From a virus, in UHGV virus genome UHGV-1723398: DNA of 10,323 nucleotides; one strand, 5' to 3'. Made by a program: the position numbers and the translations under genes. Below the pieces are notes generated by a model, which had not been told where the DNA came from, made no database searches, and saw nothing but the letters and a program-made list of their open reading frames with translations. Below, piece after piece: positions 9,665 to 10,323 of this stretch (position 1 is the first letter of the stretch; the number at the start of each line of letters is the position of its first letter).

Positions 9665-10323
9665 TGGCTGATTCGAATCTCAATGAGCCGGTAATCATTC
9701 AGGCTACACGACTCGACACATCAGTCCTTCCACGCAATATCTTCTCGCAGTCGTATCTGTTGTACGTTATCGCACAGGGTGCTGATGTTGGTAACGTGGC
9801 GAACAAGGCCAACGAAGCAGGGAAGGGGGCTTATGATGCACAGGTGAAGAATGATGAGCAGGATGTCACCCTTGCAGACCATGAATCCAGAATTGCTGCT
9901 GCTGAAGCAACTCTCGTCAATCATGAACATAGAATCGCAGCAGCGGAAAGCACTCTTGCAGATCATGAAACAAGGATTACTGCTGCCGAAACAGAGCTGG
10001 CTGATCACGAGACGCGAATTGCTGCCAATGAATCTGAGTTAGCAAACCATGATGCGCGAATAACTCAGAATACAACCGATATCAACGCACTTGATACCAG
10101 GCTCACAGCGGCAGAGGGAAGTATTTCGACGCTACAAAGCACAGTTGGTGATCACTCAACAAGAATATCTGCGCTTGAGTATGCCACCACGCGCAATAAA
10201 TCAGAGGTTGTTTACTCAGGAGTATCGGTAACCATTCCAACAGCGCCGACCAACCTTGTTAGCCTGCTGAAAACGCTCACGCCGTCATCCGGGACGTTGG
10301 CACCATTCTTCGATACTGATCAC
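9664..10323 (+). CDS. Tail needle / cell-envelope-penetrating protein, P22 gp26 family (3' partial, 220 codons in window)
   Basis: My own translation of this frame from 9664: [68 protein letters not shown]... closely resembles the P22 gp26 N-terminal gp10-binding domain as I recall it, followed by a repetitive coiled-coil region. No stop codon before the window end. It is absent from the ORF track because it runs off the edge. Confidence 0.85.
9871..10080 (+). repeat. In-frame 42-bp (14-aa, two-heptad) tandem repeats, 5 clear copies, inside the tail-needle gene
   Basis: Consecutive 42-nt units encode [14 protein letters not shown] / [14 protein letters not shown] / [14 protein letters not shown] / [14 protein letters not shown] / [14 protein letters not shown]; a sixth, degenerate unit ([14 protein letters not shown]) extends to 10122. 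Copies differ largely at synonymous positions. Confidence 0.8.

Follow-up and report, generated by a model that had tools for sequence, protein, structure and literature searches.

A 42-bp repeat array in the tail needle shaft of a P22-like phage and its in-register length variation among relatives

Introduction

The tail needles of phages P22, Sf6 and HS1 are homotrimers that plug the tail channel and are ejected at infection (PMC3741392, PMC9728967). P22-like needles are 220 to 320 Å long and contain 11 to 16 heptads (PMC3741392). The HS1 needle, studied as purified protein, has 16 heptads versus 11 in Sf6 and P22 (Leavitt et al., PMC3741392), and its helical core was predicted to be approximately 210 Å long (PMC3741392). 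In P22 gp26 the shaft is a trimeric coiled coil with polar layers in its core (PMC13580157). A shaft made of repeated heptads, the number of which differs between phages and sets the needle length, is thus already known for HS1, Sf6 and P22. Variation in the heptad number of the needle has reportedly been probed by engineering as well (Bhardwaj et al. 2009).

Here we describe the needle gene of a P22-like phage whose shaft is encoded by in-frame 42-bp repeats. The window (the whole stretch of DNA analysed, 10,323 nt of UHGV virus genome UHGV-1723398) ends inside this gene. The HS1 needle of the E. coli HS prophage (EcHS_A0316, 317 aa) is found at the same gene position and has the same five-unit array; the two genes are colinear over 660 bp with 94.5% nucleotide sequence identity. 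The HS1 knob (PDB 4K6B) also matches the needle of the window, and the differences are allelic substitutions only. Because the HS1 needle has already been published with 16 heptads, the window carries an allele of a known long needle. The gene is cut at codon 220; the two codons before the cut encode DH where relatives have VN or DN (10315-10323, ...FFDTDH versus FFDTVNNK or FFDTDNNK), a minor polymorphism at the edge of the window.

Two other described needles are more distant in the shaft or the tip. Sf6 gp9 (282 aa, knob PDB 3RWN) shares the N-terminal domain, the knob family and the DHExRI heptad-pair motif, but it has three leading units compared to five here and lacks 28 + 7 shaft residues. 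At the DNA level the Sf6 needle gene aligns in two pieces with 86% nucleotide identity overall, the shaft being more diverged. P22 gp26 (233 aa; PDB 2POH and 3C9I, and the engineered 4LIN) has a homologous plug domain and the first two DHExRI units (E ~1e-45). It has only these two units, and its C-terminal tip is unrelated to the knob. The P22 gp26 tip is said to be a triple beta-helix with an inverted coiled coil instead of a knob (Olia et al. 2007).

Results

The window is the late operon for virion assembly of a P22-like podovirus (genus Lederbergvirus), as judged by DNA matches and gene order. HK620 DNA matches at 96.7% over positions 32 to 9863, and Gally and Sf6 DNA match at approximately 97% over 1399 to 10313. 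The order terS-terL-portal-scaffold-coat-Ad3-Hc3-needle is colinear with HK620, Sf6 and Gally (Table 1). The needle gene lies directly 3' of the gp10 ortholog, an order that is also annotated in Sf6, Gally, HS and Combat2C1. The gp10 stop codon overlaps the needle start codon in the sequence TAATG (9662-9666), an arrangement that points to coupled translation of the two genes. A Rha/ORF11CD3 regulator-like ORF and a DUF2560 ORF (170-724 and 1077-1319) precede the terminase genes. A strong stem-loop terminator (7557-7574) follows the coat gene, and in Sf6 "t coat" is annotated at the same position. A promoter and terminator scan of 7400-10323 recovered this coat terminator only and found nothing relevant within the repeat array.

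Table 1. Coordinates of the genes, domains, repeat units and junction sequences in the window.
Feature	Position	Strand	Basis
Small terminase gene	1399-1824		
Large terminase gene	1821-3242		
Portal gene	between the large terminase and scaffold genes		
Scaffold gene	5385-6269		
Coat gene	6281-7552		
Adaptor Ad3 gene	7755-8237		
Tail hub gene gp10/Hc3 (packaged DNA stabilization protein), 472 aa	8246-9664	+	ORF list; colinear gene annotated in Sf6, Gally and E. coli Combat2C1
Tail needle gene, ortholog of P22 gp26 and Sf6 gp9, HS1 type, first 220 codons	9664-10323	+	translation, homology
N-terminal plug domain that binds the tail hub, codons 1-68, conserved in the gp26 family	9664-9867	+	phmmer; putative mosaic junction at 3' end
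Unit 1, two heptads: a = L70, d = H73; a = I77, d = A80	9871-9912	+	
CTTGCAGACCATGAA, start of unit 1; arm of the 84-bp deletion (289 aa) and duplication (331, 345 aa)	9871-9885	+	
Unit 2	9913-9954	+	
Unit 3, closest DNA relative of unit 1 (76% nt identity; 7/10 shared-residue codons identical)	9955-9996	+	
CTTGCAGATCATGAA, start of unit 3; second arm of the 84-bp deletion/duplication; 14/15 bases as in 9871-9885	9955-9969	+	
Unit 4, N122 at d	9997-10038	+	
Unit 5, N136 at d	10039-10080	+	
CGCGAAT pair, junction of the 42-bp deletion (303- and 331-aa alleles)	10013-10019 (unit 4) and 10055-10061 (unit 5)	+	
Degenerate unit 6: heptad frame and TR-xAAE kept, His motif lost; 31-52% nt identity to other units	10081-10122	+	
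Last three shaft heptads, shaft-to-knob join	10123-10185	+	heptad table; AlphaFold helix end at 175
Start of beta-rich Sf6-type knob (PF16532)	10198-10323	+	Pfam; strands from residue 179 in the P0003 model

The needle ORF starts with ATG at 9664 and is open to the end of the window (220 codons). Judged by relatives with 95 to 99% identity, the full needle would be 317 aa long and would carry the whole knob. The Gally needle shares 95% protein identity with it, and the needle gene of an E. coli Combat2C1 prophage (954 bp) shares 99.1% nucleotide identity. In a phmmer search against PDB, residues 1-118/122 match the P22 gp26 entries 2POH, 3C9I and 4LIN (engineered fiber) with E values of 1e-45 to 3e-49, residues 1-79 are almost identical to PDB chain 5BU5, and residues 165-218 match the knob crystal structures of HS1 (4K6B) and Sf6 (3RWN). 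Residues 136-218 match the Pfam family PF16532 "Sf6-type phage tail needle knob" (E 9e-38) over profile positions 1-76 of 175, where the match is cut by the end of the window. P0003, a relative 98% identical to the needle of the window, matches the whole PF16532 profile (E 7e-108). PHROG 1030 "tail needle knob" and PHROG 1219 "tail needle protein" are matched with E values of 2e-72 and 5e-60. The gene product is a gp26-family needle of the Sf6/HS1 knob subtype, with the plug domain, the gene position, the helical heptad core and the knob of this family.

The DNA matches of HK620, HF4s, CUS-3, Sf101, Dewey, UPF_BP1 and other phages end at 9863-9867 (needle codon 67/68), just before unit 1, and those of Sf6, Gally, JEP4 and 720R6 continue past this point. 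On this pattern of matches, 9863-9867 looks like a mosaic junction, at which a shared plug domain would be joined to a shaft and tip swapped as a cassette.

The earlier note, made from the sequence alone, had proposed that the region encodes the coiled-coil shaft of a tail needle, and the heptad analysis, the structure model and the N-terminal matches to gp26 all agree with it. With L70 set as "a", all 15 "a" positions from L70 to I168 are L, I or V, and there is no phase break. The "d" positions are, in order, H, A, H, A, H, A, H, N, H, N, L, A, L, H and L. The 14-residue unit is therefore a heptad pair, L-A-D-H-E-x-R with His at "d" and I-x-A-A-E-x-x with a small residue at "d". The spacing would also allow Arg at "g" to pair with Glu at "e'" five residues on. 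The last three shaft heptads match residues 9-62 of the HS1 and Sf6 knob crystal constructs. In an AlphaFold2 model of P0003 (38 homologs), one continuous helix from 42 to 175 is followed by a beta-rich knob. The pLDDT is 94 to 98 over residues 61-160, in a monomer model that speaks to helix continuity and not to trimer packing or His orientation. By analogy with the solved homologs, the needle of the window would be a trimer.

By heptad logic six His residues occupy the "d" (core) position, H73, H87, H101, H115, H129 and H164 (9880-10164), in alternation with Ala or Asn. P22 gp26 has only two such "d" His residues, and the articles consulted were found to say nothing about them. Six His layers would make an unusually polar coiled-coil core. 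Asn is found at "d" in IAANESE (10018-10038) and ITQNTTD (10060-10080). The latter fits the sequence IxxNTxx, which we take to be the consensus of the "N@d" ion-binding motif. N@d layers and NxxQD have been described for P22 gp26 (PMC13580157).

The array consists of five clear in-frame units of 42 bp (14 residues) at 9871-10080 with the motif LADHExRIxAAExx, and a degenerate sixth unit follows. This is in agreement with the five to six consecutive units described in the earlier note. Tandem Repeats Finder (TRF) reported a period of 42 at 9867-9990 with 3.0 copies, 68% matches and a score of 107, and a repeat search found a family of 37-nt copies spaced by 42, 42 and 42. Over 9871-10080 the nucleotide identity at lag 42 is 0.613, compared to 0.20-0.21 at lags 41 and 43. 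Shuffled sequences gave a lag-42 identity of 0.257±0.033 (nucleotide shuffles, z = 10.8) or 0.311±0.034 (codon shuffles, z = 8.8). The 42-bp periodicity is far beyond chance.

The mechanical ORF list contains two ORFs that overlap the array, one on the minus strand (9721-10008) and one on the plus strand (9851-10042), as would be expected if the periodicity were a by-product of a gene in another frame or strand, of low complexity or of chance. We consider that there is practically no room for this explanation. The lag-42 identity lies at z of 9 to 11 against shuffles, the needle frame is conserved with family matches across the best 120 homologs listed, and the indels of relatives keep the needle frame. 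The two ORFs have no homology support; they were rejected as genes and are best explained by the stop-poor composition of the repeat.

As had been claimed, the units keep the heptad pattern and differ most at third codon positions: the unit-to-unit identity averages approximately 0.58, 0.77 and 0.38 at the first, second and third position, respectively. The earlier note attributed the synonymous differences to pressure against recombinational instability. To evaluate the DNA similarity we left the protein unchanged and drew new codons according to their usage in the genes of the window itself. Unit-to-unit nucleotide identity averages 0.579, and this null gives 0.571±0.017. The same-codon fraction among identical residues is 0.383 (null 0.359±0.056; P(null ≤ observed) 0.72), the third-position identity is 0.379 (null 0.326±0.041; P = 0.10), and the longest exact in-register match is 10 nt (null 10.3±2.4; P(null ≤ observed) 0.56). 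Neither an excess nor an avoidance of DNA homology between units was found by the two codon-null statistics, which comprise 81 non-independent comparisons of shared-residue codons and are compatible with weak selection for or against DNA similarity. Units 1 and 3 were considered as a recent duplicate on account of their codon sharing (7/10, uncorrected P = 0.03) and rejected, the P value being 0.25 for the maximum over pairs. The codon sharing may be a weak remnant of a later 84-bp duplication.

The same five position-specific units are found in needles of Serratia and Klebsiella prophages with 61 to 77% identity. Position signatures are shared as well (L[IV]NHE in unit 2 and RITQNTT in unit 5), and in most rows of the unit-by-unit identity matrices no value exceeds that on the diagonal. 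Since the five units are positionally orthologous in the Serratia and Klebsiella needles, the array is old. It predates the split between the E. coli and the Serratia/Klebsiella prophages, and therefore drift alone saturates the synonymous sites. On the sequence comparisons, the codon differences between units look like ordinary neutral drift, for which no special selective cause would be needed.

It is very unlikely that selection against destabilizing recombination of near-identical 42-bp repeats has pushed the units apart at synonymous sites. The third positions are indeed the most diverged, the array contains no exact direct repeat longer than 10 nt, and perfect 84-bp duplication alleles are rare among the clusters listed (one each for 331 and 345 aa versus 20 to 31 for 303 and 317 aa), which fits short-lived perfect repeats. 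However, every measure lies in the middle of the neutral expectation, from the same-codon fraction to the longest match, the array is older than the lineage split so that drift suffices, and the diverged units continue to undergo in-register deletion and duplication. This part of the earlier note was not borne out. It had named two observations that would count against its account, unit DNA no more alike than the protein dictates and a constant copy number among relatives. The first was made and the second was not, as copy number does vary.

Needle lengths were compared in the best 120 of 2,374 homologs (E ≤ 1e-5), counted as clusters. Three sizes are common in this set, 282 aa (27 clusters), 303 aa (31 clusters) and 316-318 aa (29 clusters). 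Needles of 289 aa make up nine clusters and those of 296 aa two, and one cluster each was found for 310, 331, 338 and 345 aa. By counting HxxRI motifs at 14-residue spacing, we found 3, 4, 5, 6 and 7 leading units in the needles of 289, 303, 317, 331 and 345 aa, respectively; the distal segment is common to all. Measured between the anchors NDEQDx and TTR[KN]KSE, the shaft length differs from that of the window by a multiple of seven residues in 106/110 clusters. It was concluded that copy number does set needle length, as the earlier note had it, with shaft length in step with the 3 to 7 units of the relatives, and that the protein periodicity is conserved, the heptad phase being kept. Presumably, purifying selection acts on this phase.

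The four exceptions to the multiple of seven are single clusters (P0009, P0054, P0056 and P0072). Altogether six rare alleles break the rule in some way: P0072 (309 aa), P0054 (285 aa), P0056 (298 aa), P0009 (316 aa), P0088 (188 aa) and P0085 (298 aa). Four have shaft indels whose length is not a multiple of seven residues, one is frameshifted inside the array, and in one the N-terminal domain contains a tandem duplication of 16 residues. These alleles could stem from defective prophages or from errors in sequencing. The 331- and 345-aa needles come from one protein cluster each. Assembly error is an unlikely source of these rare alleles because the 331-aa form is seen on 5 contigs. One four-unit needle (303 aa) is found in a prophage of E. 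coli CFSAN061770 (L011, NZ_CP023142.1, 1635230-1647600) with a tailspike gene truncated beside an IS1 remnant; this prophage is probably defective.

The rearrangement junctions were located by aligning the DNA of one allele per size with the needle gene of the window. In the 303-aa allele exactly 42 bp are deleted, and units 4 and 5 are fused at the CGCGAAT that both contain. In the 289-aa allele an exact 84-bp deletion fuses units 1 and 3 within CTTGCAGA[C/T]CATGAA. In the 345-aa allele units 1-2 are duplicated in tandem as a perfect or near-perfect 84-bp copy (TRF period 84, 93% matches), and the 331-aa allele combines the same duplication (TRF 98% matches) with the 42-bp deletion. Separate events have taken place in the Sf6-type lineage, namely a 14-residue duplication (296 aa), a 28-residue duplication (310 aa) and a 28-residue triplication (338 aa). 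A window-type gene with a 49-residue deletion encodes a 268-aa needle. Outside the gaps the aligned genes are approximately 97 to 99% identical as judged by eye (the mean column identity of 78% counts gaps), and because of this near-identity the indel events are recent relative to point substitution. The junction homology is 6 to 8 exact nt, or up to 15 nt with one mismatch. For 6 to 8 nt of homology, replication slippage or short-homology annealing is a better fit than RecA-type recombination. Slippage or short-homology annealing would thus be the mechanism of the 42- and 84-bp changes.

The rise of a coiled coil is approximately 1.5 Å per residue, and each 14-residue unit would therefore add about 21 Å to the needle. 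Needle length may matter for envelope penetration and DNA ejection, as the earlier note proposed. Slippage could in principle make the array a contingency-like locus that generates length variants in steps of ~21 Å for selection by the host envelope, O-antigen or capsule. The series of 3 to 7 units is quantized among genes that are otherwise nearly identical, 14- and 28-residue duplications arose independently in the Sf6-type lineage, nearly all clusters keep the heptad phase, and the needle is placed for first contact with the outer membrane (PMC3741392). Nevertheless we regard a contingency-like locus as unlikely. There is no near-identical DNA to drive slippage at a high rate (mean unit identity 58%, longest exact match 10 nt); compared with a hypermutable tandem repeat (VNTR), the array shares in-register copy-number variation among relatives and lacks near-identical DNA units. 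A few lengths (282, 303 and 317 aa) dominate among the best 120 homolog clusters. The tailspike that accompanies a five-unit needle measures 636 aa in HS, 799 aa in Gally and 824 aa in Combat2C1, so that needle length shows no visible relation to the receptor-binding module. The 282-aa needle of Sf6 is paired with a 623-aa tailspike, and no pattern between needle length and tailspike size was found in this small sample (HS, Gally, Combat2C1 and Sf6). In P22, replacement of most of the shaft by Sf6 sequence left the K+ release kinetics nearly unchanged, unlike a change of the needle tip, which altered them (PMC3741392). It is also distinctly doubtful that the shaft is an evolvable molecular ruler sorted by the thickness of the host envelope, O-antigen or capsule, in which the His "d" layers might add a pH- or metal-responsive release trigger.

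Discussion

The locus is very probably an old repeat array in the shaft of a P22-like tail needle, of the HS1-type long form with an Sf6-type knob, which undergoes occasional in-register indels of 42 or 84 bp. The five units, the degenerate sixth unit and the three following heptads would form one uninterrupted helix from approximately residue 42 to 175. The resulting needle fiber, trimeric in the solved P22 homologs, would plug the tail channel after DNA packaging. In such an old array the synonymous sites would have become saturated, and the remaining DNA similarity between units would reflect the conserved protein and ordinary codon usage. In-register slippage or short-homology recombination may then delete or duplicate 42 or 84 bp and give rise to alleles with 3 to 7 units, of which selection would keep nearly all survivors in heptad phase.

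To the known variation in heptad number, this work adds that most changes comprise one heptad pair of 14 residues (42 bp) or two such pairs (84 bp), the reconstruction of gains and losses at nucleotide resolution, and a negative result on codon-level selection. The array illustrates neatly how an old protein repeat can undergo in-register indels from time to time, and it will be no surprise to specialists. The needle seals the packaged genome in the virion and is placed to touch the outer membrane first, and for this reason its length and stability bear on infection.
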